Made by a program: the position numbers and the translations under genes. Below the pieces are notes generated by a model, which saw nothing but the letters and a program-made list of their open reading frames with translations, did no database searches and was not told where the DNA came from. 64,000 nucleotides of DNA. Origin: Patescibacteria group bacterium. GTDB taxonomy: Bacteria; Patescibacteriota; Minisyncoccia; Phycocordibacterales; UBA918. The first letter of the stretch is position 1, and every line of letters begins with the position of its first letter. Shown here in pieces: positions 8,861 to 39,784 of the stretch. The stretch covers positions 42,333-106,332 of the forward strand of contig JBBTRC010000007.1 of assembly GCA_038065355.1 (NCBI GenBank), in the 5' to 3' direction.

Positions 8861-9724
8861 CTACGAAATTGATTGTAGAAAGCGCGTGAAGTCCATTTCT
8901 TGTTTGCCAGCGGGGACAACGCGGAGGAGGCGGAGCTCGCCCGAGGGGGCGAGCTCCGCCTTTTTAATTTTTACCCGCTCGCCGTTGTAGAGAAAGTAGG
9001 CGTCACCGATTCCAAGGAGTGCATTGATGCGGCACAGTACTAGAAAGGCCGTGTCGCCAGCTGGTAGCGCGTGCGGGTTCAAATCGAGTAAAAAATCTTC
9101 CTTCGCAAATTTGCCCGTGTAGGTAGCGGCTTCATGCATTTGTTCTTGCGGCAATAGCTCACCGGCGAGCCACGCCGGCAGTGCGTCAGCGAGTAGTTCA
9201 CCACCCATTTTTGCGAGTGCACTATCAAGTTCCGGGCCGGGCACGGGCCAATTCTCGCTCGCTATTTCAAAGGGTGCTTGGTCGAGAATTGGCCCGTGGT
9301 CCATCTTCTCATCCATCAACATAATACTGATGCCGATCTCATCACGCTTGTTTTCTAAAATGGCAGTGCGGATAGGGCTTGGCCCCCGAAGTTTTGGCAA
9401 AAGCGACGGGTGTACGTTGAGCACACCGTGTTTCGGAATTTGGAGTAACCATTTCGGCAGTATGAAGTTGTACGCCACGACCACAAACACGCCCCACGCT
9501 TGTTCTGTGAGAGGAGTGAGAGCGGCTTTATCTTTGTATGAAGTCGGTTGAAATACATTAATCTGATGTGCCTCCGCCCATTCTTTTACCGGTGGCGGGG
9601 TGAGCTTTTGCCCGCGGCCGCTTGGCTTATCGGGACTGCAGACGATCAAATCCGGTTGTATATTTGCCGCCCTTAATTCTTCAAGCACAGAAACGCCAAG
9701 CGGCTCGCCGCCAAAAAAGACCAT
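8861..9724 (-). CDS. fmt: Methionyl-tRNA formyltransferase
   Basis: MVFFGG start, N-terminal formyltransferase fold with HPSLLPKLRGPSPI. Immediately downstream of def. Start trimmed from the ORF maximum 9841. Confidence 0.85.
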   Translation of the reverse strand: MVFFGGEPLGVSVLEELRAANIQPDLIVCSPDKPSGRGQKLTPPPVKEWAEAHQINVFQPTSYKDKAALTPLTEQAWGVFVVVAYNFILPKWLLQIPKHGVLNVHPSLLPKLRGPSPIRTAILENKRDEIGISIMLMDEKMDHGPILDQAPFEIASENWPVPGPELDSALAKMGGELLADALPAWLAGELLPQEQMHEAATYTGKFAKEDFLLDLNPHALPAGDTAFLVLCRINALLGIGDAYFLYNGERVKIKKAELAPSGELRLLRVVPAGKQEMDFTRFLQSIS

Positions 9725-9734
9725 TGAGTGTCCA

Positions 9735-10286
9735 CTAGGCGTTGGCATCGTGGGGTGCTTTAGCGGCTTCGTGGACGGTAACGTCGCGCAGTTCGTCCTT
9801 TGTCCAGACTTTTTCAGCTCGGTCGACAAACAGCGTACCATCGAGGTGGTCGTTCTCGTGCTGAATTATTTGCGCCAAGAGGCCGCCGGCGCCACGTGTA
9901 AATTTTTTACCGTGTTCGTCATACGCGACAAGCGTCACGTTGGTGTGACGTCGCACAACGCCATAGCCGTCAGGTACCGACAAGCACCCCTCGCCAACCT
10001 CATGGGTTTTTTTTGAAAATTTAGTAATGTGAGGATTGATAGCGACAAGCGTCGGCAAACGGTCTTCCTCGCCGCTCTGGTCTTCGATTAAAAACAGGCG
10101 CTTCGCTACGCCAATTTGCGGCGCCGCAATCGCCACCGCCGCGTAGCCATCGACACTGTAGGTTTTTATCGCCGCTCGCATGTTTTTGAGAATTTTTTCT
10201 ACCGTGCCATCGGTAAATTCCTCCGGCGTAATCTCCTCCGCAATGCTGTGGAGAGCCATGTGATTTTGTGGTACCAGTTTGGCCAT
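9735..10286 (-). CDS. def: Peptide deformylase
   Basis: All three PDF motifs are present: GYAAVAIAAPQIG (GxGxAAxQ), EGCLS and QHENDHLDG (HExxH). Start at MAKLVPQ. Confidence 0.9.
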   Translation of the reverse strand: MAKLVPQNHMALHSIAEEITPEEFTDGTVEKILKNMRAAIKTYSVDGYAAVAIAAPQIGVAKRLFLIEDQSGEEDRLPTLVAINPHITKFSKKTHEVGEGCLSVPDGYGVVRRHTNVTLVAYDEHGKKFTRGAGGLLAQIIQHENDHLDGTLFVDRAEKVWTKDELRDVTVHEAAKAPHDANA

Positions 10287-10331
10287 ATTTATAGCGGTAT
10301 TATAGCAAAGGAAGCAGATTTTTGCGATACT

Positions 10332-10363
10332 AAAAGAAAACCCTACGCGCGAACGCGTAGGGT
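10332..10363 (-). terminator. Rho-independent terminator after sigma-region-4 gene (minus strand)
   Basis: 10-bp stem ACCCTACGCG/CGCGTAGGGT with T-run on the minus strand (AAAAGAAAA on plus). Confidence 0.55.
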
Positions 10364-10387
10364 AGTGGTCAGTCTCTGGAGCAAAGA

Positions 10388-11110
10388 TCAAAGTTCGGCC
10401 AGGATGTCCTCGTCCAGATGATAGAGAGTGCAACCGTCCTTGGTAACAAATTTTTGCGCAACGGTTTGCCTGAAGAGCCCCATCAATGATGGATGTGAGA
10501 GTTTTTTCAGAGCCCCCGATTCAATTTGCAGCACACGCATCCCACTGATACCTAGCTCTTTCGCAATCTCTTCTGCCGTCGCTTCACGCCCATTGTGCAA
10601 TCCGAAACGCAAGCGCAACACGCGTTCCTCCCGGGATGTTAACTTTGAGAGCGCCTTGGCCAAAGCTTTTCTTGTCTCGTCTGCCTGGAGTAACAGTTCT
10701 GGTGTCGACTGCCCCGATTTAGCATTTGTAAGCTGTTGCACCTCAGCAAATGTCATTTCCGCATGAGCGCGGTTTTTCTTCAGAGAGAGAAATTCTTGCT
10801 CGGTACTGAAGATGTCTTCTGGTAGACACTGAAGTGCAGCGCATATTTCGTGTACGATACTTCGCCAGCTGCCATCTTTAAGTCGGGCGGGTAGCTTCAT
10901 TCCAATCAATAGAAGAATATTGCCGTAAGCACTTGGTTTGCCTATGAGAGTGGCCAAATCTCTGGCGCTTTTAATCTCATGCTCCTCCATTTTGGTAAGC
11001 AGAAGATTGTTTCTGACAATGAACTCAACTCGGAGTGGCTTTGGATTCGACATCGCGTCCTCCCGTAAACTTGCTAATGTAGATTGTACACTGTTTTTAG
11101 TGTATGTCAA
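10388..11110 (-). CDS. Orphan sigma-70 region 4 (RpoD-like 4.1/4.2) domain protein lacking region 2
   Basis: C-terminus LTSREERVLRLRFGLHNGREATAEEIAKELGISGMRVLQIESGALKKLSHPS closely mirrors RpoD region 4.2 including the KLRHPS tail. The N-terminal 140 aa have no region 2/3 motifs. Confidence 0.55.
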   Translation of the reverse strand: MTYTKNSVQSTLASLREDAMSNPKPLRVEFIVRNNLLLTKMEEHEIKSARDLATLIGKPSAYGNILLLIGMKLPARLKDGSWRSIVHEICAALQCLPEDIFSTEQEFLSLKKNRAHAEMTFAEVQQLTNAKSGQSTPELLLQADETRKALAKALSKLTSREERVLRLRFGLHNGREATAEEIAKELGISGMRVLQIESGALKKLSHPSLMGLFRQTVAQKFVTKDGCTLYHLDEDILAEL

Positions 11111-11112: not shown

Positions 11113-13005
11113 TTACACAATCCGCTCGGGATTCACTTCTATCTTTATGTAAGGAGGAAGGGTTTTGATGCGTTCCAGTAGAGTTTGATAGGTTGCTTTG
11201 TCATCGGTCTTTAGTCGTAAGAGTGCGTGGGCGAGGGTTTTTTGCGGCGTTGAATTGGGGTTGGTATAAAATTGAGACTCGCCAGACTTAAGGCTGTTTT
11301 TTACCAGTTTACCCACTTCATTCGCGGCGGCCTCCACCCCCGACCATGAGAGCAGAATGAAAGTGGCGTACGGTGGGTAGTGCAACATACGGCGGAGTGA
11401 GATTTCGTCATCATAAAAACGTTCGAGTGCGCCACGCGTGGCATAGGTAAGGAGGGCGTCGGTTTCACTTCGTGTTTGTATCAAGACCTCTTTGGCGGTA
11501 AATTCTCGCAGACGAAGTAATAGTCGAAAAAGAGATTCGTCGGCGCGCCAGGTCGGAATCGAGCGCGTGGCGTCGAGGGACACAACCGCACTCATCTCGA
11601 CACCTCGGCTCAAAAAAGGTAGCGCAATCTGCGTACCGATAAGCACCCCGGATTTTTTGGCAAAAAAATCGTCGGCAATTTTCTTCGCGCGTTTGCCGGT
11701 CGGAGCGGTCAGGTGGTCGATGATAAACGCGTCACTGTCCGGCATTTTTTCTTGCCACTCATCATAAACGTGCTGTACCCCCACACCGCGTTCTCGCAAG
11801 CGCCACGAACCGCACTCGCTGCAGACATCAGCCGCCCGAACTTTTGTGCCCGAGGTGTTTGATACGAACCAGCGTTCTTCTTTATCTCCAGTTCGAGTTC
11901 GAATCAGAGAGTAGGGAGTATTAGAGTCAGGGCAACGAAAGATGTGGCCGCAGTCGATGCAGGCAACGACCGGCGCGAGGCCACTGCGAGCCGCATACAA
12001 AAAGACGTGGCCACGCGCCTCCAGCGTCCGTGTCGCACTCCGTAGCAACTCCGGCGAAAATAGCTGAAACGGGCAGTCGGGTTTTGGTTTGTCTTTCTGT
12101 TTGACGATAGTTAAAGGGGCGGTAAAGGCCAGGCGTTTCACTTCTTCTCCAAGCGTCGTGTACCGCTCGCTTCGCCGGTGCACTTCGTCTTCGGTGCGCG
12201 GGACGGTGTCGCCGAGAATAATACTGCGGCCGGAAACAGCTGCATACGCGATGAGCGCGTCGCGATGGTCGAGGTAGGGACGTTGTCTCGTTTTATAATG
12301 GGGACTGGCGGACTGCTCGACAATGATGCTGAGCAAGTCGATTCGTTCGACGTACGCGTAGGCTGGCGTTGTAATAATGAGTTTGGCCAAGGTTTCGTCT
12401 TCAAGTTTGGCAAATGCATCATCACGTTGGCGCTTGGTGTGGGATGGTGAAATAACGACGAGACGTTCTTCGATACCTTGTCGAAGTTCCTCAACTATAT
12501 AATCGATTTCCACCGCCGTTGGTACCACCAGCAACACCGAACCGCGATGAGCGAAGGTACTCCTAATATGACTTTTGTACGCCAGAATGCGTTCGTCAAA
12601 CCGTCCCGTCAAAATCTGCGGCGTGCTGTCTTCAGTGTGCAGGATTGGGTTTACGACTGGATACGAACGCGCACCCTTGCGCACGTCCGGCGGCAAGAGT
12701 GTGTATATGATAGAACCAACCGTCGCCGGATAGAGCAGAACCAAGCGCGCGGCGGTATCGCGTACGGTTTTGGGCAGCACGGTGGGTTTGTCTTGGTTGG
12801 GCAGTTTGCGTAAAGAAAAGGTGGCCGCTTTGAGCGCCGTTTTTGTACTGCTCACCGGCTTGCTGTCGAGTACGATAGCAGCCTGATTTTTGCCGCGTAT
12901 CGGCACTTGAATAAAGCTCCCGAGCTCGTAGTTGCTACTTGAGAAATAGGAAAGTGATTCAAGCTGGGTGCCACGAATGAGAGGAATGACATGAATCACG
13001 AACAT
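11113..13005 (-). CDS. priA: Primosomal protein N' (PriA) homolog with degenerate Walker A/B
   Basis: N-terminal 3'-DNA-binding domain and central Cys cluster CIDCGH...CPDSNT...CSECGS. Collinear with E. coli PriA, but GxGKT is replaced by TGRFDER and DEEH by VEQS. Confidence 0.75.
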   Translation of the reverse strand: MFVIHVIPLIRGTQLESLSYFSSSNYELGSFIQVPIRGKNQAAIVLDSKPVSSTKTALKAATFSLRKLPNQDKPTVLPKTVRDTAARLVLLYPATVGSIIYTLLPPDVRKGARSYPVVNPILHTEDSTPQILTGRFDERILAYKSHIRSTFAHRGSVLLVVPTAVEIDYIVEELRQGIEERLVVISPSHTKRQRDDAFAKLEDETLAKLIITTPAYAYVERIDLLSIIVEQSASPHYKTRQRPYLDHRDALIAYAAVSGRSIILGDTVPRTEDEVHRRSERYTTLGEEVKRLAFTAPLTIVKQKDKPKPDCPFQLFSPELLRSATRTLEARGHVFLYAARSGLAPVVACIDCGHIFRCPDSNTPYSLIRTRTGDKEERWFVSNTSGTKVRAADVCSECGSWRLRERGVGVQHVYDEWQEKMPDSDAFIIDHLTAPTGKRAKKIADDFFAKKSGVLIGTQIALPFLSRGVEMSAVVSLDATRSIPTWRADESLFRLLLRLREFTAKEVLIQTRSETDALLTYATRGALERFYDDEISLRRMLHYPPYATFILLSWSGVEAAANEVGKLVKNSLKSGESQFYTNPNSTPQKTLAHALLRLKTDDKATYQTLLERIKTLPPYIKIEVNPERIV

Positions 13006-13148: not shown

Positions 13149-14648
13149 CTAAAACTCGTCTAGGTAGGCGATTTTGGCGCCGAGCGAAGCGAGGCGCTCG
13201 ACCAGCTTTTCGTAGCCGCGGTTAATGCTGTAGATGTTGCGCAACACCGAAGTGCCGGAAGCGCCAAGCATGGCGATCAAAAGAATAGTCGCTGGCCGGA
13301 GCGCCGGCGGACAGATCAGCTCGGTGGCACGAAGTTTCGAAGGGCCGGTAATGTAGATACGGTGGGGGTCAGCTAGGACGGTCTCGGCGCCGAGTTTGTC
13401 GAGCTCGGTAAAATAGATGGCCCGTTTATCGTACATCCAGTCGTGAATCAAAGTTTGACCGGCTGCTTGAGTAGCGATGACGGCAAAAAATGGCAGGTTA
13501 TCAGCATTGATGCCGGGGTAAGGGCGCGAGTGGATTTTATCCGCCGCCGCGGTGAGTTTTGATGGCTTGGTAGTGATGTCAACCAATTTCACTTGACCAT
13601 TGGCGCCGAGGTATGGCTTTGACATGGTGTACTTGAAACCCATCTTTTTTAACGTGAGGAGTTCTAGTTCAAGAAATTCAATCGGACAGCGGGTAATGGT
13701 GATCGAAGAATTAGTCACGATGGCCGCGGTCAAAAAGAACATGCTGTCGGTCGGGTCTTCAGCCAAAGTGTACTCGATGTCTTTTTTAATCTCATCAACT
13801 CCGGTGACGGTGAGTGTGGTGGTACCGACGCCGTCAATCTGCACACCAAGCTCACGCAGGAACACGCACAGCTCCTGCACCATGTAGTTGGCTGAAGCGT
13901 ACTTAATGACAGTAGTGCCGGGGAAGCGGGCGGCGGCCATAAGCACGTTTTCGGTCACGGTGTCGCCCGATTCATAGAGTATGATTTCTTGGGGTTGTTT
14001 TTTCTTGACACTCACCTCGTAGGTGTCGTTGGTGGTTTTGATATCGACACCAAATTCTTCAAGTGCATAGAAATGCGGTCGCACCGTGCGGCTACCGAGC
14101 TTGCAGCCGCCCGACTGCGGTAACGAAAATGTTTTGAGGTGGTGGATGAGCGGCCCGATAAACATGACGATGCTGCGGGTGCGTTTGGCGGATTCGGTGT
14201 TGATGCGTGCTAGGTTAAATGTCCGTGGTGGTGTGATTGAGACAGAGCTTTTGTCCCACTCTACTCGTACGCCGATACTCTGGAGCACCTCAATCAGACG
14301 ATGCACTTCTTCGATACGCGGCATTTTATGAAGTCTCGTCGTGCCGCGATTTAAAAGAGACGCACACAGGAGGCCGACTGCGCCGTTTTTTGATGAATTT
14401 GTTTCGATGGCACCCGTCAGCGTCTGGCCGCCGTCGACACGTACGCTTACGGTACCAGGCGAGAGGGTAATGAGGTTTTTGCCGAGCGCTTTGCCGATAC
14501 GGCGGAGCATGTCGGCACTCACATTTTGCCGGCCCGACTCAATGCGGGCGACCGCGCTCTGGGTAGTTTTAATTTTTTTGGCGAGGGCGGCCTGCGTTAT
14601 CCCAAGTGTTTCTCGCACGTCCGCGATGCGGTTTCCTATGTGTGACAT
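13149..14648 (-). CDS. murA: UDP-N-acetylglucosamine 1-carboxyvinyltransferase (MurA) with fused N-terminal XRE-family HTH domain
   Basis: N-terminus LGITQAALAKKIKTTQSAVARIESGRQNVSADMLRRIGKAL is a classic Cro/C1 HTH. The body has MurA motifs SGGCKLGSRTVRPHF (active-site Cys loop) and a C-terminal RGYEKLVERLASLGAKI. Start at MSHIGNR. Confidence 0.8.
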   Translation of the reverse strand: MSHIGNRIADVRETLGITQAALAKKIKTTQSAVARIESGRQNVSADMLRRIGKALGKNLITLSPGTVSVRVDGGQTLTGAIETNSSKNGAVGLLCASLLNRGTTRLHKMPRIEEVHRLIEVLQSIGVRVEWDKSSVSITPPRTFNLARINTESAKRTRSIVMFIGPLIHHLKTFSLPQSGGCKLGSRTVRPHFYALEEFGVDIKTTNDTYEVSVKKKQPQEIILYESGDTVTENVLMAAARFPGTTVIKYASANYMVQELCVFLRELGVQIDGVGTTTLTVTGVDEIKKDIEYTLAEDPTDSMFFLTAAIVTNSSITITRCPIEFLELELLTLKKMGFKYTMSKPYLGANGQVKLVDITTKPSKLTAAADKIHSRPYPGINADNLPFFAVIATQAAGQTLIHDWMYDKRAIYFTELDKLGAETVLADPHRIYITGPSKLRATELICPPALRPATILLIAMLGASGTSVLRNIYSINRGYEKLVERLASLGAKIAYLDEF

Positions 14649-14656
14649 GAGCAATA

Positions 14657-14676
14657 GCATAGCATATGCGCTATGC
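14657..14676. promoter_or_regulatory. Inverted repeat GCATAGC-n6-GCTATGC (contains palindrome GCATATGC), a candidate operator 9-28 nt upstream of the HTH-MurA start
   Basis: 7-bp perfect arms, overlapping 8-bp palindrome. Position and the fused HTH suggest autoregulation. Confidence 0.35.
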
Positions 14677-14697
14677 GTGGAAGAAACTGTGAAATAC

Positions 14698-14726
14698 TTG
14701 ACAATTAACCTTGAGTGTGATATTAT
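14698..14726 (+). promoter_or_regulatory. Strong sigma-70-like promoter TTGACA-17-TGnTATTAT (extended -10)
   Basis: Consensus -35, 17-nt spacer, TGA-TATTAT extended -10. Confidence 0.55.
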
Positions 14727-14751
14727 GAAGAGAGTCAACAAGAGGTGCGAC

Positions 14752-14907
14752 ATGAAGATTATTTTTAAAGTTCTGCGCGGTATCTGCAGGTTCTTGATTC
14801 TGGCCCTGACGCAGGACCCTTACGCCGAAGTTCGGCGTATAGGTCTGCTCGGCATGCTCGAGGAGCGTCGTCAGAATCCGGCCGCTTTCGCCCATGAGGG
14901 ATGCTAG
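14752..14907 (+). CDS. Small protein (51 aa) in a self-contained promoter/SD/terminator module. Alternatively a ~230-nt sRNA
   Basis: SD AAGAGGTG 4 nt before the ATG. Sequence MKIIFKVLRGICRFLILALTQDPYAEVRRIGLLGMLEERRQNPAAFAHEGC. Terminator follows at 14931. Confidence 0.35.
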   Translation: MKIIFKVLRGICRFLILALTQDPYAEVRRIGLLGMLEERRQNPAAFAHEGC

Positions 14908-15017: not shown

Positions 15018-16031
15018 ATGTTTGGTAGCTTTACTCCTAAAGTCGGAATTGATCTTGGTACTACCAATATTTTGGTGTTTGTTCCTGGTCAAGGCATTGT
15101 ATTAAATGAACCGTCGGTGGTGGCCATCTCCGACAACAATCAAGTGCTGGCGGTCGGCACGGAAGCGAAGCTTATGATTGGCCGCACCCCTGACACTATA
15201 CGTGCGTACCGCCCCATGCGTGACGGCGTGATTGCCGACTACCGCGTGACGGAGACAATGCTCCGTTACTTTCTCCGCAAATCCATGAGCAAATACAGTC
15301 TGTTCAAACCAGACGTGATGGTGTCGGTGCCGGCCGGTGTAACCTCGACCGAACGGCGGGCGGTCATCGAAGCGGCCATCAAAGCCGGCGCTAAAAACGC
15401 CTACGTGGTGAAAGAGCCGATTTTGGCCGCCATTGGCGCCGGTGTCCCCATTTATGAGCCGCAGGGACACATGATCGTCGACATCGGCGGGGGTACGATT
15501 GACGTGGCGGTGATTTCGCTTGGCGGCATTGTCGCCGCCAACTCGGTGAAGTGTGCGGGCAACCGCATTGATGCGGCCATCATCGACTACATCAAAAAAT
15601 CCCGCAACCTCTCAGTCGGCGAAAAGACCGCTGAAGAAATCAAAATCCAGATTGGTTCGGCCTTGCCGGTTGAGGAAGAATTAACGATGGACATAAAAGG
15701 ACGGGACGTGTTGTCCGGTTTGCCGCGCACCACCGAACTGAAGACAAATGAAGTAGTGCGCGCAATCAGCCGCGAACTGCGAGAAATGGTCAAAGCCATC
15801 AAAGACGTTTTTCAAGAAACGCCGCCCGAGCTCGCCGCCGACATCATCGATGGCGGCATCATCATGACCGGCGGCACATCGCAACTGCGCAATTTTCCCG
15901 AGCTCATTCGCCGCCGCACCGGCGTGAAAGCGGTGGTGGCTGATCAGGCGCTTTTTTGTGTCGCCAAAGGTACCGGCATTGCGCTTGAACACCTTGATGT
16001 CTACAAACGCGCCGTGTTCGCCAAGAAGTAA
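15018..16031 (+). CDS. mreB: Rod shape-determining protein MreB (solitary paralog, Mbl/MreBH-like position)
   Basis: VGIDLGTTNILVFV...NEPSVVAI, phosphate-1/2 and adenosine motifs of actin-fold MreB, 337 aa. Confidence 0.85.
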   Translation: MFGSFTPKVGIDLGTTNILVFVPGQGIVLNEPSVVAISDNNQVLAVGTEAKLMIGRTPDTIRAYRPMRDGVIADYRVTETMLRYFLRKSMSKYSLFKPDVMVSVPAGVTSTERRAVIEAAIKAGAKNAYVVKEPILAAIGAGVPIYEPQGHMIVDIGGGTIDVAVISLGGIVAANSVKCAGNRIDAAIIDYIKKSRNLSVGEKTAEEIKIQIGSALPVEEELTMDIKGRDVLSGLPRTTELKTNEVVRAISRELREMVKAIKDVFQETPPELAADIIDGGIIMTGGTSQLRNFPELIRRRTGVKAVVADQALFCVAKGTGIALEHLDVYKRAVFAKK

Positions 16032-16125
16032 AAATTTTTCCACAAAAGACTCCGCAGTATCTTTAAGTTTAAAAGGGGATTAGGTCGCATCCTTGTCTCT
16101 GTTTCGCGGTACTATAATAGGTACT

Positions 16126-18888
16126 ATGGAAGGTGTTCCTGCGAAATTTTCTAATCCTCAAGAGGAAATAAACTACTTGCGCGAACGCATCGCCGTGCGC
16201 GAACGGGAACTGCTTGATCGTACACCAGAAATAGACACTGCCGACCGAGAGACCATTGGCCGCCAAGAGCTAAAAGAATATACCAGCTTCACTCCTAAGA
16301 TGGTGCTCAAACCTGACTATGAGCTTACCCATGAGGCACTGACGCGGTCTGTTGAACACATCAAAACCGCATCTGATCCAGCCGAGGAGATTTTGGCTAT
16401 TGCGTACGAAAAGGGAATCAGAAATGCCTTGAGTATTCTCGAAAAGACAGAGAACGCGTTTGTGGTCGACGAAGTGCATCGGCAACTAATAGAGCACCTG
16501 AGGGCCGGCGCAACCCTCGCCAACCTCAAAGAAGGAGTGCCGCCGTGGCATATACTCCACATGACTCTCTACCAAGTGACCTTGCCGGCCGAAGTGGCTC
16601 CGGGCGGACGAGAATACGATCTGGCCGAACTCGCCGGCATGATGCAGCAGCTGTTTGCTGGACTGCGCACTATAGGCTCGGTCAAGGAACACAATCACTT
16701 CACGATTGAGATTGCAGTCGCCAACAACAGCAGTGACATCGTTTTTTACGTCGCGGTGCCCAATGAGTTTACGTCGCTGTTTGAGAAACAAACACACTCA
16801 CTTTTCCCGTCGGCCGTCTTAGAGATACAACCGCACGATTACAACATCTATATAAAAAATGGCAGCACGCACATCGCCGAGATAGCTCTGAAAAAACATC
16901 CAATCTACCTGCTCAAAACTTTTGATACATTCACTTCCGATCCACTGGTAGTGATCTTAAATGCACTGTCGAAAATAGATCACCATGGCACCGGTGCGGC
17001 TGTGCAGTTTGTGGTTCGTCATCCGCGGCGGCAGTATCGCAAGGTGTTTGAACAGATTATCAAGTCCATCGAAAAGGGTACTAAACCACAAGAAGCGATT
17101 GCACAAAGCACCATGGCTGGTGAGTTCGTGGCGACGGTCGGTGAATTGTTCGGGAGCGGCAAGAAAAAAGCCAGTGACGAAGAAGAACCAGTTGTTGTCG
17201 ACACCGCCACGCTTGAGCAGTTTAAACGCAAAATAAAAACTGACCTGGTCGAGGTAAACATCCGCATTGTCGCGTCTTCGGAAAGTGAAGCCAAAGCGCA
17301 ACAAATTTTGACCGAGATCGAGTCAGCGTTTAACCAGTTTGACTCCACCGAAGGCAATCAGATTGTTTTTAAGCAACTTAAAGGCGGCGCGCTTCTCCGG
17401 GCAGAGCAAGCATTTTCGTTTCGGGAACTGACTTCAAACAATCTTTTTCCTCTTTCGCTTGAAGAGCTGTCAACGCTTATTCACTTCCCCGGTAACGGTA
17501 TCCACTCGACGCCGGAGTTCAAACAGTCCTACGCCAAAACCGCCCCGGCGCAAAATGCCATGCCGACCGAGGGCACATTGCTCGGCATCAACAACCATAG
17601 AGGCGTCAAACGGCCCATCTACATCACCGAAGCAGACCGTCTGCGGCATTTCTACATCATCGGCCAGACCGGTACTGGTAAGTCAGTTTTTCTCAAAAAT
17701 CTCATTATCCAAGATATCCAATCCGGCGCGGGTGTCTGTATGATCGATCCTCACGGCACCGATATTGAGGACGTGCTCGGAGCGGTGCCAAAGGAGCGAG
17801 AGCAAGATGTGATTTACTTTGATCCATCCCGCCAAGACCGCGTGCTAGGACTCAACATGCTTGAGTATGACGCGTCCAAACCCGAGCAGAAGACGTTTGT
17901 GGTCAATGAGCTTTTCTCAATCTTTCAGAAGCTCTACGGAGCCAACCCAGAGTCGATGGGTCCGATGTTTGAGCAGTACTTCCGCAATGCCACCTTGCTC
18001 GTCCTCGAAGACCCTGACAGCGGCAACACCCTCATGGATATTTCTCGCGTGCTCGCTGACGCAAAGTACCGCCGACAAAAGCTTGAGAAAGCCACCAACC
18101 CGGTCGTGGTGCAGTTTTGGCGGGAGATTGCGGCCAAAGCCGGCGGGGAAGCGACGCTCGAAAACATTGTGCCGTACATTGTGTCGAAGTTCGACGTATT
18201 CACCGCCAATGACTACATGCGTCCGATTATTGGCCAGCAAAAGAGCGCCTTTAACTTCCGGCAAGTCATGGACGAACGAAAGATTTTGCTCATCAATCTC
18301 TCGAAAGGCCGTCTCGGAGAGATCAACGCCAATCTTATCGGTATGATTGTGGTGGGAAAATTTTTAATGGCTGCGCTCTCGCGTGTCGACGATCCGACCA
18401 AGAGCTTCCCGCCGTTCTATCTTCACATTGATGAATTTCAAAATATTTCGACTAATTCAATAGCGTCCATTTTGTCAGAGGCTCGCAAATACAAACTCGG
18501 GTTGACAGTCGTTCATCAGTTCATTGCGCAATTGGATCCGGTCATCAAAGATGCAGTGTTTGGTAACGTCGGATCAATTGCCGCCTTTCGGGTGGGCAAT
18601 GACGACGCAGTGGCGCTCGAGTCACAGTTTGCCCCAACCTTCACCGCCGCAGAACTCATGAATATTCCAAATTACAACGCGTATCTGCGCGTGCTCGCCA
18701 ACGGTACCCCGACCCTCCCGTTCAGCATCGAGACACTGCCGCTTGAAGATACGGATCACAAACGAGTCGCTGAGCTTATAGAACAAAGCGGCCTTCGCTA
18801 CGGACGACCAAAGCACGACATCGAAGCTGAAATACAAGCACGTTACCAAAGACCAACACCGCCGGTACCGAATGCCCTACGTATGTAG
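16126..18888 (+). CDS. Large soluble P-loop ATPase of the FtsK-HerA superfamily with VirD4/TraG (T4SS coupling protein)-like C-terminal half and a novel ~480-aa N-terminal domain
   Basis: Walker A HFYIIGQTGTGKSV at about residue 520, Walker B FYLHIDEFQN, then ARKYKLGLTVVHQFIAQL (R...G....Q..QL as in VirD4/TraG/TrwB). No TM segments. ATG at 16126 lies 8 nt after a TATAAT (possible leaderless start). The ORF maximum begins at a TTG at 16093. Confidence 0.6.
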   Translation: MEGVPAKFSNPQEEINYLRERIAVRERELLDRTPEIDTADRETIGRQELKEYTSFTPKMVLKPDYELTHEALTRSVEHIKTASDPAEEILAIAYEKGIRNALSILEKTENAFVVDEVHRQLIEHLRAGATLANLKEGVPPWHILHMTLYQVTLPAEVAPGGREYDLAELAGMMQQLFAGLRTIGSVKEHNHFTIEIAVANNSSDIVFYVAVPNEFTSLFEKQTHSLFPSAVLEIQPHDYNIYIKNGSTHIAEIALKKHPIYLLKTFDTFTSDPLVVILNALSKIDHHGTGAAVQFVVRHPRRQYRKVFEQIIKSIEKGTKPQEAIAQSTMAGEFVATVGELFGSGKKKASDEEEPVVVDTATLEQFKRKIKTDLVEVNIRIVASSESEAKAQQILTEIESAFNQFDSTEGNQIVFKQLKGGALLRAEQAFSFRELTSNNLFPLSLEELSTLIHFPGNGIHSTPEFKQSYAKTAPAQNAMPTEGTLLGINNHRGVKRPIYITEADRLRHFYIIGQTGTGKSVFLKNLIIQDIQSGAGVCMIDPHGTDIEDVLGAVPKEREQDVIYFDPSRQDRVLGLNMLEYDASKPEQKTFVVNELFSIFQKLYGANPESMGPMFEQYFRNATLLVLEDPDSGNTLMDISRVLADAKYRRQKLEKATNPVVVQFWREIAAKAGGEATLENIVPYIVSKFDVFTANDYMRPIIGQQKSAFNFRQVMDERKILLINLSKGRLGEINANLIGMIVVGKFLMAALSRVDDPTKSFPPFYLHIDEFQNISTNSIASILSEARKYKLGLTVVHQFIAQLDPVIKDAVFGNVGSIAAFRVGNDDAVALESQFAPTFTAAELMNIPNYNAYLRVLANGTPTLPFSIETLPLEDTDHKRVAELIEQSGLRYGRPKHDIEAEIQARYQRPTPPVPNALRM

Positions 18889-18897
18889 CATATATAT

Positions 18898-20136
18898 ATG
18901 AGCGCCGACAAGCAAAGCACCGAATACCAGAACGTCACCATCGACACCGTGTCCGGACTTGATCTTTTTCTTACCCATATACGGGATGTATACCAAACAG
19001 GACTTCCGAAAAAGTCTGCCAGTTTGAAAAAACAACCCCACAGATCAGTTGCCGACCGGAATCACAAATTTTTACGTACGTACAAAGAGCTTCAGCATGG
19101 CATTATGGCGTGCAAGAAGTCACTTCTCGCCGGCAAGGAAGTGACGACTGCCGAAGCAGGCAAACTGCAAACATTGTACGATCAGTTGCTATCCCTGCGC
19201 GACTCATCTTTACACGAAACGGCCGCTAAAAAAACTCCAGCGGTAGTTCCCGTAGCTTCCACAGCAAAAAATGAAACACACGCCCCATCGTCCGCATTCG
19301 CCACTGACGCGCTAGAAAAGTCTCAATCTACAGTGCCTACCCACTCACTTAGAGAAAAGAAAATACACCCTCTGGCCAGACGTATGTTTCAGAAAGAGGT
19401 GCGAGAAACTAAGCGTCCCTTAGAGACTGCTCGGCTTACAGCAACACCAACACCTTCGCCAGCGACATCAGATAAAAAGAAGAAAGAAGACACGACTCAC
19501 GACAAAGACAAGCAGGTGCCGACTTCGACGAATCCTTCTCGTAGTGCGTCGCCGCCAACACCGGTCACTTTCACACCACAGTCGGCGAGAGTTCGCTCGT
19601 CAGCCCAACCCGCGCCGCCACCAAGACCCACATTCACTCCAACCTCGACCAAAAAAGCCAAAAATCCGTCGGCCACGGCCGCTGTGCGGCCACTTGAATC
19701 CGGCATTGTACAGCCTGACCCAATCCATGAAAAACGATCACTGACGGCCATCTATTTGAATAGGCCTGAATATCGGCAATTTATCGCCGACAACTACTCA
19801 TCGCCAGCTGGATTTGAAAAAATTATTGACAGCACGATCACCGCCATCGAGCGCACACTTACTGACCCAATCGAACGGTGGTTGGGTGAGGTACACGCCA
19901 GTCCGTTTGCTTATTTGGAAAGTATGACACTCTCGGATATTACCGAGTTTAATCAGCAACCGTATGAATTCATCAAGTCAGTACTGGCGAAAGAAAATAT
20001 AAAATACGAAGGCTACGTGCTGTGGGTAGATTTGATACCGGAGATGTTGCGTATCGTTGACGCGCATACCGACATAACCTTCGGCGAATTGTTCGCACGG
20101 TATTTAATTGAAAACGAAATGTTACGGAGTGCGTAG
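18898..20136 (+). CDS. Hypothetical protein with folded N- and C-terminal domains and a long Pro/Thr/Ser-rich disordered centre
   Basis: 412 aa. Central part ...TATPTPSPATSDKKKK...SASPPTPVTFTPQ...PAPPPRPTFTPTSTKK... is low complexity. Tightly spaced after the ATPase. Confidence 0.45.
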   Translation: MSADKQSTEYQNVTIDTVSGLDLFLTHIRDVYQTGLPKKSASLKKQPHRSVADRNHKFLRTYKELQHGIMACKKSLLAGKEVTTAEAGKLQTLYDQLLSLRDSSLHETAAKKTPAVVPVASTAKNETHAPSSAFATDALEKSQSTVPTHSLREKKIHPLARRMFQKEVRETKRPLETARLTATPTPSPATSDKKKKEDTTHDKDKQVPTSTNPSRSASPPTPVTFTPQSARVRSSAQPAPPPRPTFTPTSTKKAKNPSATAAVRPLESGIVQPDPIHEKRSLTAIYLNRPEYRQFIADNYSSPAGFEKIIDSTITAIERTLTDPIERWLGEVHASPFAYLESMTLSDITEFNQQPYEFIKSVLAKENIKYEGYVLWVDLIPEMLRIVDAHTDITFGELFARYLIENEMLRSA

Positions 20137-20201
20137 TCGTAATTCACATCTGTGCGTAACTGTTTTGATTCATCAATTGCAAAAAGTGTTATGATAGGTG
20201 T

Positions 20202-21914
20202 ATGTCCAGCGGAGGTTCTTTTAGTGTAAGTGCCACACGTTCATTTGATCTCGAGTCGCAATCGGGAATTGCGCACGTGCTGACCTCAATTCGTGCCAGC
20301 GATCTTTCAAACTCACAAAAAAACGAGTTGCGTGACATGGTCTTTCTTTATGTGAACGGCGGGCATGATCCGGCCGTGGAGCTTATTCTGGAGAAGAAAC
20401 TCGCCAGCTATGAAGTCGCTCCAGCTCCGAAGAAAGTAACGCCAGGAAGCGTCGTTCGCGCCAACCCGATTGGCGGTGTGCGTCCTGCGCCACGTTCTTT
20501 TGCAATCAAAGGCACCTATCAAGCACCACCACCCGTTGTATCGGCGCCGTCAGCACCTCATGTTGCTGAAGCACCAAAAGCACCAGAGCCGAAGCTCACC
20601 CCCATTCCGGTAGCAACACCCGTTTCACCGCCGCCTCGCTTGCCCGAACCGGAGGCCAAGCCGCTAGTAGAGCCACCAGCGCGCGCCGTGCCGGCCGCTC
20701 CTCCAAAAGTGGCTAGTGTCGCAGTAGCGCCGAACGCTACGCCAAATACGCCAAGCGCCTCAAGCGAGACGCAGAATCAATACTTAGAACGAATCCGCGA
20801 GATCAAATCTATCGTAAACGAAAAGGTCGGCAACCCGGTTAATTTAGTTGATATCAATAATGAAGTGGGGCGTGAGTACATGGGCGCCTTGCTTGATGCG
20901 ATGAAAAAGTTGCACAGCGGTACGTCGGCGGTTTCGGCGATGCGGCGTCTCGAGACTTCATTTATCGCAGTCCAAAGAGCCATTGCCGATCACGAAAAAC
21001 ATCCTACTCATAGTGAGCCGCCAAAGGTTATCATTGCAAAAACAGCCCCGCCGGTTTCACCAAAAATAGAAGAGAAACCAAAAGCACCAGAGCCGAAGCT
21101 CACCCCCATTCCGGTAGCAACACCCGTTTCACCGCCGCCTCGCCCGCCCGAACCGGAGGCCAAGCCGCCAATCGAGCCATCACAACCACGACAATCACCG
21201 CCCACTCCTCCCACTACTGCGGTAAGAGAACAGGTGTCGGCAAATTCCTCATACGTAAAAAGTCAAAAATTACGCATTGAAACACATGATCGTGATGACA
21301 GCGCGCTTACCATTAAGCGACCGGAGCCACCTATGAGAACCCCTGAGCCAGCAGTAGAAGTGAGGCAACCAGCAGCTCCGACTCCGCCACCGATTGCGCA
21401 CACTACACCGATCTCCTCTGACGCTGATAAGCGCTGGGCGGACACGGCTGGTGCGGAATCAGCCACTGCTCCAAGAAGCTCGCCACCAATTACAAAACTC
21501 GACTCGCTGGCAGATCTAAAAAAACCTCGCCGTCCCGACGAATTGCCGACCTCCGCCTCTTTGCAGACTTCCACTGTGAAAGGTGACTCACTCTTCACAA
21601 AAGAAGTCACCGACGGTCTCAACCAGCTCCTGCTCGAGTGGCCAATTTTCAAAAAAAGCGGACTGTTTGGCACCGGTCCGAAAGGGTACGAGCATCCGCT
21701 TTTTAAAAAAATTGCCAATTTGCCGATTCCACTTCTGTTAGCAGGACGTTTTGAGGGCGCGACCCAAGAGATAAAACAAAGCATCACCGACTATATGAAC
21801 GGGTGGCGCTACGAACAGGCAATCATCTACGAGCAAGGAGAAACGTTTGAGCACTACTTACGGCGCGTCATTCGGCACATACTCGATTTGCAAATTAAAA
21901 AAGCCCAGCCATAA
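20202..21914 (+). CDS. Hypothetical proline-rich protein containing a duplicated APEPKLTPIPVATPVSPPPR(L/P)PEPEAKP module
   Basis: 570 aa. Two near-identical 95-nt DNA repeats inside the CDS. Structured N- and C-terminal domains. Confidence 0.45.
   Translation: MSSGGSFSVSATRSFDLESQSGIAHVLTSIRASDLSNSQKNELRDMVFLYVNGGHDPAVELILEKKLASYEVAPAPKKVTPGSVVRANPIGGVRPAPRSFAIKGTYQAPPPVVSAPSAPHVAEAPKAPEPKLTPIPVATPVSPPPRLPEPEAKPLVEPPARAVPAAPPKVASVAVAPNATPNTPSASSETQNQYLERIREIKSIVNEKVGNPVNLVDINNEVGREYMGALLDAMKKLHSGTSAVSAMRRLETSFIAVQRAIADHEKHPTHSEPPKVIIAKTAPPVSPKIEEKPKAPEPKLTPIPVATPVSPPPRPPEPEAKPPIEPSQPRQSPPTPPTTAVREQVSANSSYVKSQKLRIETHDRDDSALTIKRPEPPMRTPEPAVEVRQPAAPTPPPIAHTTPISSDADKRWADTAGAESATAPRSSPPITKLDSLADLKKPRRPDELPTSASLQTSTVKGDSLFTKEVTDGLNQLLLEWPIFKKSGLFGTGPKGYEHPLFKKIANLPIPLLLAGRFEGATQEIKQSITDYMNGWRYEQAIIYEQGETFEHYLRRVIRHILDLQIKKAQP
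20573..20667 (+). repeat. Intragenic direct repeat copy A (95 nt)
   Basis: 93 of 95 nt identical to 21077..21171. Confidence 0.85.
21077..21171 (+). repeat. Intragenic direct repeat copy B (95 nt)
   Basis: 93 of 95 nt identical to 20573..20667. Confidence 0.85.
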
Positions 21915-25501: not shown

Positions 25502-26572
25502 ATGAACGTATTTACGCGACAACTAAACGCGCTTCTTTCGGCTGTTTCTACCGATATGGCGATCGACTTGGGAACGGCCAACACGCTCGTGTATGTCAAA
25601 GGCAAAGGAATAGTACTCAACGAGCCAACGATTGTCGCTATCAATAAAAAAACCGGCCAACTAGTGGCGGTTGGCAACGATGCAAAGACTATGCTTGGCC
25701 GTACGCCCGCACACATCGAGGTCATTCGCCCGTTGGTTGACGGGGTGATTTCGGACTTCGAAGTCACCGAAGAAATGCTCGCGTACTTGATCGCCAAAGT
25801 GCGCGGTGGTGTCCGTTCAATTGTAGCCCCCCGCATGTTGATTGGTGTGCCGTCTGGGATCACTAACGTTGAAATGCGTGCCGCGCGCGATGCGGCAAAA
25901 AATGCCGGCGCACGCGATGTTTTTTTGATTGAAGAGCCGATGGCTGCCGCCATCGGCGCTAAGTTGCCCGTCGGTAAGCCAATTGGCAGTATGATTATCG
26001 ACATCGGAGGCGGTACCACCGACATCGCCATCATCTCGCTTAATGGCATTGTAGTGTCACGTAACTTGCGCGTCGCGGGCGACCACCTCAATGCGGCGAT
26101 CACTTCATACATTCGCGACCAGTTTAAAATCCACGTTGGCGAAAAAACCGCCGAAGACGCCAAAATCGCTCTGGCTTCAATCGCAGTTACCGAGGGAAAT
26201 AAGGAGCTCGTCGCGCGTGGCCGCGACGTGGTGACCGGCCTGCCGCGCGAGGTCATCATCACCGACGCAGATGTAAGGGACGCAGTCTCGGGACAAGTCG
26301 AAACAATCGTTGAGACGGTGCGAAGCGTGCTTGAAGAAACCCCACCCGAAGTTCTCTCTGACATTATGCAGCGCGGCATCCATCTCTCGGGCGGGGGAGC
26401 ACTGATACCTGGCCTGACCGAGCTCCTTGAACACGAACTCCAGGTGCCGGTCGTGGTGGTCCCTGATCCTCTCCGCGCGGTCGTGCGAGGAGCTGGCATT
26501 GTGGTCGAAAATTTAGACGCCTACGCAGAAATACTTTTAGATCATGAAGGTACGTTCACCACGCAAATTTAA
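25502..26572 (+). CDS. mreB: Rod shape-determining protein MreB (operonic copy)
   Basis: MAIDLGTANTLVYV...NEPTIVAI. Followed by mreC, mreD and mrdA. Confidence 0.9.
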   Translation: MNVFTRQLNALLSAVSTDMAIDLGTANTLVYVKGKGIVLNEPTIVAINKKTGQLVAVGNDAKTMLGRTPAHIEVIRPLVDGVISDFEVTEEMLAYLIAKVRGGVRSIVAPRMLIGVPSGITNVEMRAARDAAKNAGARDVFLIEEPMAAAIGAKLPVGKPIGSMIIDIGGGTTDIAIISLNGIVVSRNLRVAGDHLNAAITSYIRDQFKIHVGEKTAEDAKIALASIAVTEGNKELVARGRDVVTGLPREVIITDADVRDAVSGQVETIVETVRSVLEETPPEVLSDIMQRGIHLSGGGALIPGLTELLEHELQVPVVVVPDPLRAVVRGAGIVVENLDAYAEILLDHEGTFTTQI

Positions 26573-27476
26573 AGACCAACCAATCGTGAGAAATGTGGCG
26601 ATTGCGCTCATTCTCTTGGTCGTTGGAGTAGCGGCTCCAGTCGTGTTTAGTGCGGCGGCCAGATTTGTACTAACTCCGGTACACGTTTTTAATCAGTGGT
26701 TGACCGAGTCGTCAGATACGTTTCCTTCTTATATACGTGAACGCACGGCGCTCTACGAAGAGATAAAAAACCTCAAAAACGAACTGGCCATTGCTGGCCG
26801 TAGCAACATCACTACCGAGCGCCTGTACGAGGAAAATTTACGACTTCGTTCACTGCTTCATGCCTCGACCAGCCCACGCATTGGCGCGGCGGTCGTCGCA
26901 CGACCAGACACCCTGCCGTATGACCTTCTACAGATTGATCAAGGAAGTGAAGCAGGGGTTACGGTTGGCTCGCCCGTGTACATCGGTTCAGACTGGGTGA
27001 TTGGTCTCGTCAAGAGTGTCGCGCCTAAGTACGCCTTCGTCGAACTATTGACTACCCCTGGCTTTTCTTCGACTGTATACATTGCCGGAGCCAACGTGAT
27101 TGCAACTATGGAAGGCTACGGCGGCGGTGTGGCGCGCGTGCGAGTGCCGCAAGGAGTGCCGCTTCAAAGTGGAAATTTGGTACACATTCCTAGTATTGAG
27201 CCAGGCATCTTCGGGCGCGTGTCGCACGTGGAGAACACACCGTCCCAACCCGAACAGTTTGGCTACATCACGCCTGAAATACCCATTCAAAGTATATTTT
27301 TTGTGGCTGTGGCCCCACACGTTCCTATTACTACTGACGGAGAGCTCATCAAAGCACACATAGAAGATTTGCTGATAAAAAATCTATCGCTTGGAGACAC
27401 CGGTACGACCACGACTGCCACAAGCACTGTCGCGAATACCACCGCTAGTACTACAGCAACGGAAAACCAACCATGA
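26544..27476 (+). CDS. mreC: Rod shape-determining protein MreC
   Basis: N-terminal TM, coiled-coil (EEIKNLKNELA...LYEENLRLRSLL), beta-rich C-terminal domain. Position after mreB. Start uncertain (overlaps the mreB end by 29 nt). Confidence 0.6.
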   Translation: MKVRSPRKFKDQPIVRNVAIALILLVVGVAAPVVFSAAARFVLTPVHVFNQWLTESSDTFPSYIRERTALYEEIKNLKNELAIAGRSNITTERLYEENLRLRSLLHASTSPRIGAAVVARPDTLPYDLLQIDQGSEAGVTVGSPVYIGSDWVIGLVKSVAPKYAFVELLTTPGFSSTVYIAGANVIATMEGYGGGVARVRVPQGVPLQSGNLVHIPSIEPGIFGRVSHVENTPSQPEQFGYITPEIPIQSIFFVAVAPHVPITTDGELIKAHIEDLLIKNLSLGDTGTTTTATSTVANTTASTTATENQP

Positions 27477-37788: not shown

Positions 37789-38082
37789 TTAGTGACCCTG
37801 GGGCGATAAGGCCTTGCACGGCAGCGTAGTCGCTACCCCCGCCACTGCTGCTTCAATGTACGGTTTTTTGGCCAAAGGGGCAGCCAAGACGATGCCCGAC
37901 TCGTTACTCTCGGTGAGGTAAATTCTAGAGCCGATCTTTGGCACTTCGTAGCCGCACTCCTCTACGAAGTGTTCACGCAGTCGTTGAGTGTAGTTTTCGT
38001 CAGCTCTTTCAAAGAGCCAAAACATGGCCGGCAGAAGCAATAAAACGGCCACTACACATATCAGTTTCACTGTTGAAGACAT
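37789..38082 (-). CDS. Hypothetical small exported protein
   Basis: 97 aa, N-terminal hydrophobic segment VKLICVVAVLLLLPAMFWLF. Lower GC than surroundings. Confidence 0.4.
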   Translation of the reverse strand: MSSTVKLICVVAVLLLLPAMFWLFERADENYTQRLREHFVEECGYEVPKIGSRIYLTESNESGIVLAAPLAKKPYIEAAVAGVATTLPCKALSPQGH

Positions 38083-38232
38083 GCACCCTCCTCCTTGCTG
38101 TTGGGTTTAAAAGAACGTTTGCACGTATAATACTACAAAGTAGTCTAAAAGTCAAGTTTCCTCTATCCAGTTTATTAGTACCCGAAAGTCGATCCAGCGG
38201 CTCGCGCATACGAAAAGGGGCCTTTTAAGGTT

Positions 38233-38568
38233 TTAAACTTCTAACTCAAACTTCCAGTTCATCTTCACTACCGAGATGTTAAACGGAACGGTAATATTGT
38301 TGTGTTGTTTAAATGGAACAATTTGATCTCGTAGCTTAGCGAGTATTCTTTCCATGTCTTGTTCGGAAACTTCAGAAAATGTAGCGTATACATAAATTTC
38401 AATTGGTGCTGCATTTACCGTCACTTGGTTCGGAGACGCAAAAACAGAAACCTCAGCGGGAGTATATCCCGTTGCTTCTGCCGCAAATTTCTGGATGGCG
38501 GCAGCAACTTTTTGTATTTCTTCCTGTGAAAGTTTGCTCTTTTCGTAGTCAATTCTTACTATGGGCAT
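38233..38568 (-). CDS. Hypothetical protein, possibly tautomerase-superfamily-like (Pro1 after Met)
   Basis: MPIVRIDYEKSKLSQEEIQKVAAAIQKF resembles the 4-OT/MIF-like N-terminal beta-alpha-beta. 111 aa. Low-GC islet. Confidence 0.35.
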   Translation of the reverse strand: MPIVRIDYEKSKLSQEEIQKVAAAIQKFAAEATGYTPAEVSVFASPNQVTVNAAPIEIYVYATFSEVSEQDMERILAKLRDQIVPFKQHNNITVPFNISVVKMNWKFELEV

Positions 38569-38707
38569 GAGTTCATTATATCAAATGTTCCAACATTCCA
38601 TTTTGATGACTCAAATCTGCTGCAATAATCGATCTACACGCTACGTTGCTCGATCCCAGCAAGGGTATTGCTACAAATATTTTGGATATGTTGGCGAATT
38701 AAAGTCA

Positions 38708-39780: not shown

Positions 39781-39784
39781 GAAT

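Follow-up and report, generated by a model that had tools for sequence, protein, structure and literature searches.

The locus described here raises the question of whether a PriA that has lost the catalytic motifs of a helicase can still serve as the PriA of its host. The gene occupies 11113..13005 on the reverse strand of a 64,000-nucleotide stretch of DNA (the window) from a Patescibacteria group bacterium (assembly GCA_038065355.1, contig JBBTRC010000007.1, positions 42,333 to 106,332), starts with ATG, and encodes 630 amino acids; from its sequence and predicted fold the product is a PriA-like pseudohelicase. The protein (the query) is identical to AAB388_01265, a protein from a metagenome-assembled genome (MAG) at NCBI, Patescibacteria group bacterium, annotated as "hypothetical protein." An original prediction, made from the sequence alone, had described a PriA homolog with ablated Walker A and Walker B motifs acting as an ATPase-dead scaffold. 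The answer reached in this study is that the query is probably the housekeeping PriA ortholog of a Parcubacteria/Paceibacteria bacterium, evolved into a pseudohelicase that would act as a platform for fork recognition and loading. What was observed directly comprises homology, the predicted fold, loss of the motifs, constraint across the family, and conservation of gene order; that ATPase activity is absent is deduced from the sequence and from the biochemistry of Escherichia coli K230R and Deinococcus PriA. Coordinates below are positions in the window; those of the query and its parts, of the other genes of the priA locus, and of DnaB are on the reverse strand, and (+) marks the forward strand.

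The identity of the query as a PriA is evident from both sequence and structure comparisons. The NCBIfam model TIGR00595 (PriA equivalog) matches residues 144-574 with an E-value of 4.5e-44 and 150.9 bits, and the remaining NCBIfam matches are to PriA models without exception. A phmmer search of Protein Data Bank (PDB) sequences returned only the PriAs of Klebsiella pneumoniae and E. coli (E ~1e-14), with alignments that begin at residue 142, just past the P-loop position. The reference PriAs used throughout were that of E. coli MG1655 and five from Bacillota, Bacteroidota, Cyanobacteriota, and Alphaproteobacteria (six PriAs from five phyla in all); a canonical six-phylum profile gives the query 154 bits, and identity to E. 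coli PriA is ~19-22%. An AlphaFold2 model built from a 76-sequence alignment (pLDDT 89.7, pTM 0.89) has PriA structures as its top nine PDB matches in Foldseek (E 2e-36 to 5e-26, spanning ~680-770 columns), and the first match outside PriA is Mfd at E 1e-11. The best TM-score, 0.74/0.73, belongs to 6dcr, an engineered winged-helix-deletion variant of E. coli PriA. The query is a PriA homolog with the fold and domain order of PriA, namely the 3'-DNA-binding domain (3'BD), two RecA-like lobes, a Cys-rich region (CRR) inserted in lobe 2, and the C-terminal domain (CTD). The proposed homology is thus upheld by the TIGR00595 match, the exclusively PriA matches in the PDB, the predicted fold, and the gene order priA-def-fmt. 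Collinearity with E. coli PriA, which had also been proposed, holds for the domain order but not for the winged-helix domain of ~90 amino acids, which is absent.

The catalytic motifs are missing from each position at which the alignment places them. At the Walker A motif, or P-loop (224-GVTGSGKT-231 in E. coli), the query has TGRFDERI at residues 133-140 (12586..12609), which bears out the ablation originally read as TGRFDER. Alignment with canonical PriAs sets Arg139 at the position of Lys230 and Ile140 at that of Thr231, and the Arg139 codon, CGC, is at least two substitutions from any lysine codon. The Walker B position (320-DEEH-323 in E. coli) reads EQSA at residues 230-233 (12307..12318); the ablation was correctly called, but the register given for it, VEQS, was off by one. 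Motif III, canonically GSATP, reads GDTVP (12199..12213), with D266 conserved in 94% of the family. At the motif VI position, residues 497-506 (11488..11517), a deletion of five amino acids removes the arginine-finger motif GRAGR, a loss that the original prediction had missed. In the same alignment all six canonical PriAs have GxT(G/S)SGKT, DE(E/C)H, and GRAGR. The statement that no GK(S/T) precedes the Cys cluster can be extended to the entire protein, and when the gene strand was scanned in each of its three frames for GK(S/T) and DExH, no P-loop in shifted register came to light. The sole DExH string, DEVH at residue 273, was considered as a Walker B motif and rejected; it lies past motif III and aligns with LETLCN of E. 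coli. The loss is specific to PriA, because the other P-loop NTPases of the window (DnaB, a Pif1-like protein, and a HerA-like protein) keep intact Walker A motifs. A sequencing error is excluded, since 262 independently assembled relatives share the motif-less state.

Those relatives belong to a family of considerable size. Among the best 120 homologs, identity to the query runs from 62 to 74%, the length is exactly 630 amino acids in nearly all, and the names given are Kaiserbacteria, Nomurabacteria, Pacebacteria, or Parcubacteria. When 50%-identity representatives were searched exhaustively, 774 clusters were returned at E<=1e-30, and the best 150 of these are 27-60% identical and mostly 620-660 amino acids in length. 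A word-based search seeded by a 27%-identical relative reached proteins named Paceibacterota, Wolfebacteria, Zambryskibacteria, and Parcubacteria; the majority carry PF17764 (PriA 3'BD). The family alignment comprises 262 full-length relatives from Parcubacteria/Paceibacteria (27-74% identity, nearly all 620-660 amino acids), and no member has a P-loop, while all 262 have the motif VI deletion. The Walker-lysine column is arginine in 260, isoleucine in one, and lysine in one, the last without the P-loop glycines. The column of the Walker B aspartate is always Glu or Asp, the wider family following the pattern E-[R/K/H]-E-[S/N]. The survey of relatives suggested along with the original prediction therefore shows the degenerate motifs to be a trait of a very large Parcubacteria-wide family and not of this genome alone. 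Conservation reaches 90% or more at about 70 positions. Residues kept from PriA in general correspond to Y18, P253, Y327, R338, R427, G429, G488, G490, G538, T539, D560, E572, Q597, T598, R625, P631, P632, and P729 of E. coli, and R139, R148, S156, and W401 are invariants specific to the family. Because length, the ~70 conserved positions, and the new invariants are kept family-wide, the protein bears the marks of remodelling under selection and not of decay.

Natural PriA pseudohelicases are already known as a kind from Deinococcus. The PriA of Deinococcus radiodurans has a natural lysine to arginine change and negligible ATPase and unwinding activity, binds single-stranded DNA and forks, and interacts with DnaB (PMC4504706), so that the ATPase-deficient precedent named in the original prediction is a real one. 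PLSDB protein searches, which yielded the canonical PriAs of five phyla, returned no PriA from Deinococcus or Thermus. The D. radiodurans gene was recovered from metagenome contigs (locus L011) by means of the 5' cloning primer of PMC4504706; the open reading frame (ORF) encodes 925 amino acids, begins (GTG)TLWTV, ends VNPRST-TGA, and matches both published primers exactly. A scan of genome contigs with the 3' primer gave only a chance match in a Clostridia MAG (L002), which was discarded.

The Deinococcota PriAs (Lopper et al. 2015, PMC4504706) resemble the query in the replacement of the Walker lysine by arginine, a degenerate Walker B motif, and the absence of GRAGR. The trait is lineage-wide in both, the 3'BD, CRR, and CTD are retained in both, and fork binding with hand-off to DnaB would be expected to proceed without ATP in both. 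The differences are substantial, however. Deinococcus PriA is 750-925 amino acids long, and the D. radiodurans protein has 437 residues before the core where the query has 128. Deinococcus PriA has all eight cysteines, matches PF18319 and PF18074, and passes the cutoff of TIGR00595 (254.8 bits for D. radiodurans against a threshold of 230.35). The motifs of D. radiodurans PriA read GGRPASRF and LEEG with a two-residue deletion at motif VI, compared to TGRFDERI, EQSA, and a five-residue deletion in the query. The D. radiodurans protein has been characterized biochemically, whereas the query is known here from its sequence and a model.

A second group came to light in the Deinococcus search. Two metagenomic proteins of ~660 amino acids, P0466 and P0467, have neither GK(S/T) nor GRAGR but keep a DEAD-like Walker B motif. 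The best NCBIfam match of P0467 is PRK14873 ("primosome assembly protein PriA"), with which it aligns from end to end. Among the relatives of P0467 in the collections only one has a name, a protein encoded on the chromosome of the actinomycete Nonomuraea gerenzanensis (NZ_LT559118.1, 4355424-4361530, locus L018, ORF at ~2387-4615 of the locus); in this PriA homolog there is no GK(S/T), no DExH/D, and no GRxGR. The actinobacterial-type proteins are like the query in being short (~650-740 amino acids) and, in these three examples, in lacking GK(S/T) and GRxGR. They differ in the DEAD-like Walker B motif of P0466 and P0467 and in forming a clade apart from the query, which scores 34-54 bits on PRK14873 models with cutoffs of 812-980. 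This is possibly a third natural lineage of PriA pseudohelicases, represented by one cultured genome.

If three lineages have lost the motor, the loss could have occurred once. A single ancient loss of ATPase activity shared by the Patescibacteria family with Deinococcota, and perhaps with the actinobacterial-type PriAs, is unlikely. All three lineages are without motifs I, II, and VI, and both Patescibacteria and Deinococcota have arginine at the lysine position, in many cases with an acidic residue before it and a hydrophobic residue after it (ERI, ERL, ERY/F). In a neighbor-joining (NJ) tree with one Deinococcus sequence, that sequence was sister to the Patescibacteria family in 151 of 200 bootstraps. 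A second NJ tree included eight more Deinococcota PriAs, one of them from Trueperaceae, in order to break the long branch. Support for Patescibacteria with Deinococcota then fell to 29/200, and to 25/200 when the columns of motifs II, III, and VI were masked, and the sister relationship was not accepted for this reason. Each lineage was monophyletic in 193-200 of 200 bootstraps in the branch-broken tree. With all columns the three pseudohelicase lineages formed a single group in 106/200, but with the motif columns masked they did so in only 64/200; the actinobacterial-type PriAs grouped with Deinococcota in 128-150/200 and with the Patescibacteria family in 0/200. All trees are by the NJ distance method, with distances that are saturated (~2.5), and by mean distance the Patescibacteria family, part of the candidate phyla radiation (CPR), is closer to canonical PriAs (2.51) than to Deinococcota (2.62).

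Profile scores point in the same direction as the branch-broken tree. On the Patescibacteria family profile five of the six canonical PriAs score 231-283 bits and the PriA of Sinorhizobium scores 185, while Deinococcus PriA scores only 140; on the canonical six-phylum profile Deinococcus PriA scores 268 bits. The motif VI deletions of the three lineages are of five, two, and three amino acids, the Walker B replacements are E[RKH]E[SN], LEEG, and DEAD/WDDG, and Deinococcus keeps a long N-terminal region along with matches to the Pfam zinc-ribbon and PriA_C domains. An independent origin of motor loss in Patescibacteria and in Deinococcota is therefore favoured by these sequence comparisons, though not proven.

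What remains of the protein once the motor is set aside is most of the PriA architecture. The 3'BD occupies residues 1-111 (12673..13005) by alignment, and relatives carry Pfam PF17764 in this region. The 3'-end pocket of E. coli PriA is formed by D17, Y18, G37, and K61, with Tyr18 stacking on the 3'-terminal sugar (PMC5778457). Tyr20 of the query corresponds to Y18 and is tyrosine in 261 of 262 relatives. In a two-species alignment K59 of the query aligns with E. coli K61; in the larger alignment this column is lysine in 174 relatives and arginine in 83, and an arginine of the query is placed there. The position of D17 is serine or threonine in the family, as it is in several canonical PriAs, and the alignment at G37 is ambiguous. 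A short linker at residues 112-128 (12622..12672) stands in place of the winged-helix domain, seen as a 93-column gap against E. coli residues ~110-200. The absence of this domain is supported by the best structural match, since 6dcr is itself a winged-helix-deletion variant.

Helicase lobe 1 (residues 129-300, 12106..12621) keeps its RecA-like fold according to AlphaFold2 secondary structure and Foldseek. It contains a post-motif-II loop, KTRQRPYLDHR, at residues 238-248 (12262..12294), in the position of the aromatic-rich loop, which in E. coli PriA is K328-Y335 and crosslinks to the fork junction (PMC5175346). The family pattern of this loop is R-P-Y-x-D-x-R, with P243, D246, and R248 at least 95% conserved. 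RecA-like lobe 2 (residues 301-515, 11461..12105; AlphaFold2 and alignment) contains the Cys-rich insert and retains motif IV as ARSGLAP, in which R340 and G342 are conserved, and motif V as LIGTQ at residues 455-459 (11629..11643) by alignment. The CTD, recognized by alignment, AlphaFold2, and Foldseek, covers residues 546-630 (11116..11370), and the hinge before it has invariant R538 and P544-P545, equivalent to R625 and P631-P632 of E. coli.

The CRR (residues 346-402, 11800..11970, by alignment) is present as had been described, with its outer site intact, but it is half-degenerate, and the query keeps only five of the eight cysteines (C349, C352, C358, C395, and C398), with S361, S382, and S385 replacing the others. 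The outer CxxC...CxxC formed by C349, C352, C395, and C398 is invariant in 262 of 262 relatives, and the inner four cysteines are kept in ~86-92% of the wider family. With the pairing of cysteines and zinc read from the nested pattern of the sequence, loss of the putative inner zinc site is specific to the subclade of the query. In this subclade (relatives 62-74% identical) three of the four inner cysteines are serines and the intervening hairpin is longer. Cys358 is invariant there even though its presumed zinc partners are gone, and one relative, P0002, keeps an extra cysteine at 382. Compared to canonical PriA as represented by TIGR00595 and the structures of K. pneumoniae (4NL4) and E. coli (8FAK), the query has the same fold, domain order, pocket tyrosine, motifs IV and V, hinge prolines, and outer zinc site; it lacks the P-loop, DEEH, GRAGR, and the winged-helix domain, and its subclade has lost one of two zinc sites.

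The surroundings of the gene are those of a conserved locus. A gene string entirely on the reverse strand runs from a helix-turn-helix (HTH)-MurA gene (13149..14753) through priA, an ORF of 240 amino acids resembling sigma70 region 4, and def to fmt, with mreB divergent and upstream of HTH-MurA. The def gene, for peptide deformylase, is the maximal ORF at 9735..10433, with the true start probably later, and the fmt-like formyltransferase gene at 8861..9841 ends the priA-def-fmt string. The order MreB/HTH-MurA/priA/def/fmt is the same in a 67% identical relative on a 997-kb contig (P0027) and in a distant relative, P0285, found by way of the 27% identical P0241. Because gene order is kept in both close and distant relatives, this is taken to be the ancestral priA locus and the query an ortholog. 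The priA-def-fmt arrangement is typical of Bacillus subtilis. Both JGI and NCBI label family members "primosomal protein N'," and searches of the window with the canonical PriA profile and with E. coli PriA found no second PriA-like ORF. The DnaB replicative helicase, presumed cargo of the primosome, was placed at 56370..57746 by the original prediction and is indeed there, with matches to Pfam DnaB (108.6 bits) and DnaB_C (333.8 bits) and an intact Walker A motif, ARPSMGKT.

A PriA platform that works without nucleotide has precedent in E. coli. The K230R substitution (priA300) abolishes ATPase, helicase, and translocase activity, and priA300 cells are almost wild type; the K230R protein assembles primosomes in vitro, only the PriA-PriC pathway depends on the helicase activity, and priA300 restarts via PriA-PriB (PMC5778457). 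The query has the same lysine to arginine change at the Walker position, and its domain composition equals that of 6dcr. K230R and 6dcr are single laboratory changes, however, whereas in the query motifs I, II, and VI have all been rebuilt, and the E. coli pathway partners PriB and DnaT were not found in its window. Since the same substitution comes together with much more extensive losses in the active site, the query is predicted to be unable to hydrolyze ATP.

A mechanism in three parts is the most likely for such a protein. Recognition of abandoned forks and D-loops would fall to Tyr20 of the 3'-end pocket, to the lobe surface that carries the post-motif-II loop, and to the CTD. The nucleotide-independent platform would then recruit DnaB, directly or through a loader, and the replisome would be reloaded; this is plausible because E. 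coli K230R and D. radiodurans PriA already work in this way. The former nucleotide pocket is probably filled and stabilized by a salt-bridge network of Arg139 and acidic residues 137-138 and 230, as suggested by the near-invariance of Arg139 and the conservation of the acidic residues. The pocket tyrosine, post-motif-II loop, zinc-bound CRR, and CTD would be the parts expected to do the work of the scaffold. The original prediction, a PriA with ablated ATPase motifs expected to act as a scaffold, is supported by the sequence, the predicted fold, and the tests of family and context.

Several points weigh against the query being a housekeeping PriA that acts as a nucleotide-free platform. The TIGR00595 score of 150.9 bits is below the equivalog cutoff of 230.35 bits, and the query itself has no significant Pfam match to any domain. 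A canonical second PriA may lie outside the 64-kb window, and DnaC/DnaI, DciA, DnaD, PriB, PriC, and DnaT were not recognized among its ~40 annotated ORFs. Residual nucleotide binding may occur by analogy with the second, weaker nucleotide site proposed for E. coli PriA, whose location is unassigned (PMC5778457). DNA binding, recruitment of DnaB, and the role given to Arg139 are predictions. One rival reading is that the protein is derived from PriA but works outside replication restart, as a structure-specific DNA-binding factor in recombination, repair, or regulation, or that it is a diverged paralog beside a canonical PriA. This reading is rather improbable, although the view is limited to 64 kb of the genome, a search of the surroundings gave no primosome partner, the query is further from the canonical profile (154 bits) than Deinococcus PriA (268 bits), the winged-helix domain has been lost, and the subclade has lost a zinc site. 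Against it, the ancestral-looking priA-def-fmt locus is present in distant relatives, the 3'-end pocket tyrosine and CTD are retained, and to these may be added the "primosomal protein N'" labels and the single PriA-like ORF of the window.

A PriA that is still an active ATPase or helicase, with Arg139 substituting for the Walker lysine and acidic residues holding Mg2+, is much less probable again. The near-universal arginine (260 of 262), the acidic residue always found at the Walker B Asp position, the retention of motifs IV and V and of the Q and T of the "QT" element, and the second nucleotide site proposed in E. coli (PMC5778457) could be accommodated by such an enzyme. However, in E. coli PriA this single lysine to arginine change is enough to remove ATPase, helicase, and translocase activity (PMC5778457), and the Deinococcus PriA with the natural change is without ATPase activity (PMC4504706). 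In the query the P-loop glycines and threonine are gone as well, other residues stand in place of the catalytic Glu and the His of DEEH, and both arginines of motif VI have been lost by deletion. That the gene is a decaying relic with no selected function is barely credible: although Patescibacteria genomes are reduced, the annotation is "hypothetical protein," and the score is under the PriA equivalog cutoff, the 630-residue frame is intact, and its length is kept by hundreds of relatives with identities as low as 27%. Positions with 90% or higher conservation number ~70 and include new invariants of the family, and conservation extends to the residues that have taken the place of the dead motifs and to gene order.

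With the query read as a housekeeping PriA pseudohelicase, what is new is a second, very large lineage of the kind, probably independent of Deinococcus and more minimal in architecture, having no winged-helix domain, a deleted motif VI, and in one subclade the loss of a zinc site. The open-access literature searched does not describe any loss of PriA motifs in CPR/Patescibacteria or Actinobacteria, although such a description may still have been published, and a 2017 review names only Deinococcus as an exception to the conservation of PriA helicase motifs (PMC5778457). The present results suggest that loss of the PriA motor is more frequent than the literature states. A broader proposal is that this loss is a recurrent and stable outcome: the whole Parcubacteria/Paceibacteria radiation, with hundreds of 50%-identity clusters, would have independently made a nucleotide-free scaffold without a winged-helix domain, in which an Arg-acidic network replaces ATP-Mg, and an actinobacterial-type PriA would have done something similar. 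This proposal is tentative, slightly more open to doubt than to confidence.

If it is true, a large share of bacterial diversity restarts replication without PriA helicase activity, in contradiction to the textbook view, in which the helicase motifs of PriA are conserved throughout bacteria. With priA300 nearly wild type, it is puzzling that the motor has been conserved at all. The essential job of PriA appears to be structure-specific recognition and nucleation of the primosome, with the helicase an accessory that some lineages can lose. The lineages together form a natural experiment: in the Patescibacteria family the fork-recognition parts are under strong constraint and the motor has been discarded, and a third lineage is hinted at in Actinomycetota. 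Because these proteins do not reach the curated thresholds for PriA and in many cases carry the annotation "hypothetical," the capacity for replication restart is under-called in Patescibacteria. The minimal architecture of 630 amino acids would be a convenient system for separating the scaffold function of PriA from its motor function. The scale of the loss is notable and useful to specialists in replication restart; given priA300 and Deinococcus, it is not startling.

Several other features of the window were observed. In E. coli priA300, Rep is thought to cover for the PriA motor. The window encodes a Pif1-like superfamily 1 helicase (43698..45407, +) with the P-loop GEPGAGKT and a C-terminal HTH_40 domain, and RecR (55645..56259) and RmuC (53190..54272) are encoded near it. 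By analogy, these three might be candidates to cover for the missing PriA motor, which is speculation.

The 240-amino acid ORF between priA and def (10388..11110) has a Sigma-70 region 4 domain (55 bits) and overlaps the maximal def ORF by 46 nucleotides, which implies that def probably starts further downstream. It is a lineage-specific insertion, because def directly follows priA in loci L008 and L009. The HTH-MurA gene on the other side of priA encodes an Xre-type HTH_3 domain fused N-terminally to a MurA-like enolpyruvyl transferase of the EPSP_synthase family. The same fusion lies beside priA at 4122-5666 of L008 and 2611-4110 of L009, from close and distant Parcubacteria.

A three-gene set at 16093..21914 (+) encodes an ATPase of 931 amino acids with the P-loop GQTGTGKS, similar to HerA/DUF87 and type IV secretion system coupling proteins, followed by proteins of 412 and 570 amino acids without a Pfam match. 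The set is located between mreB and a DNA_pol3_delta2-like/RRF/M50 block and is probably an inserted island, because mreB and this block adjoin in L008. The window has two MreB paralogs, at 15018..16031 (+) and 25502..26572 (+), with 434 and 436 bits, and MreC and a PBP2-like transpeptidase are encoded at 26544..27476 and 27726..29444. This bacterium, whose genome is reduced, thus has a complete rod-shape system in which MreB is duplicated. GC content dips to 0.42 at 38001..40000, compared to 0.48-0.57 elsewhere in the window, in a segment with few long ORFs that may be an integration site or foreign DNA. The dip adjoins the sole tRNA found in the window, a tRNA-Glu with anticodon CTC at 39785..39859 on the reverse strand.

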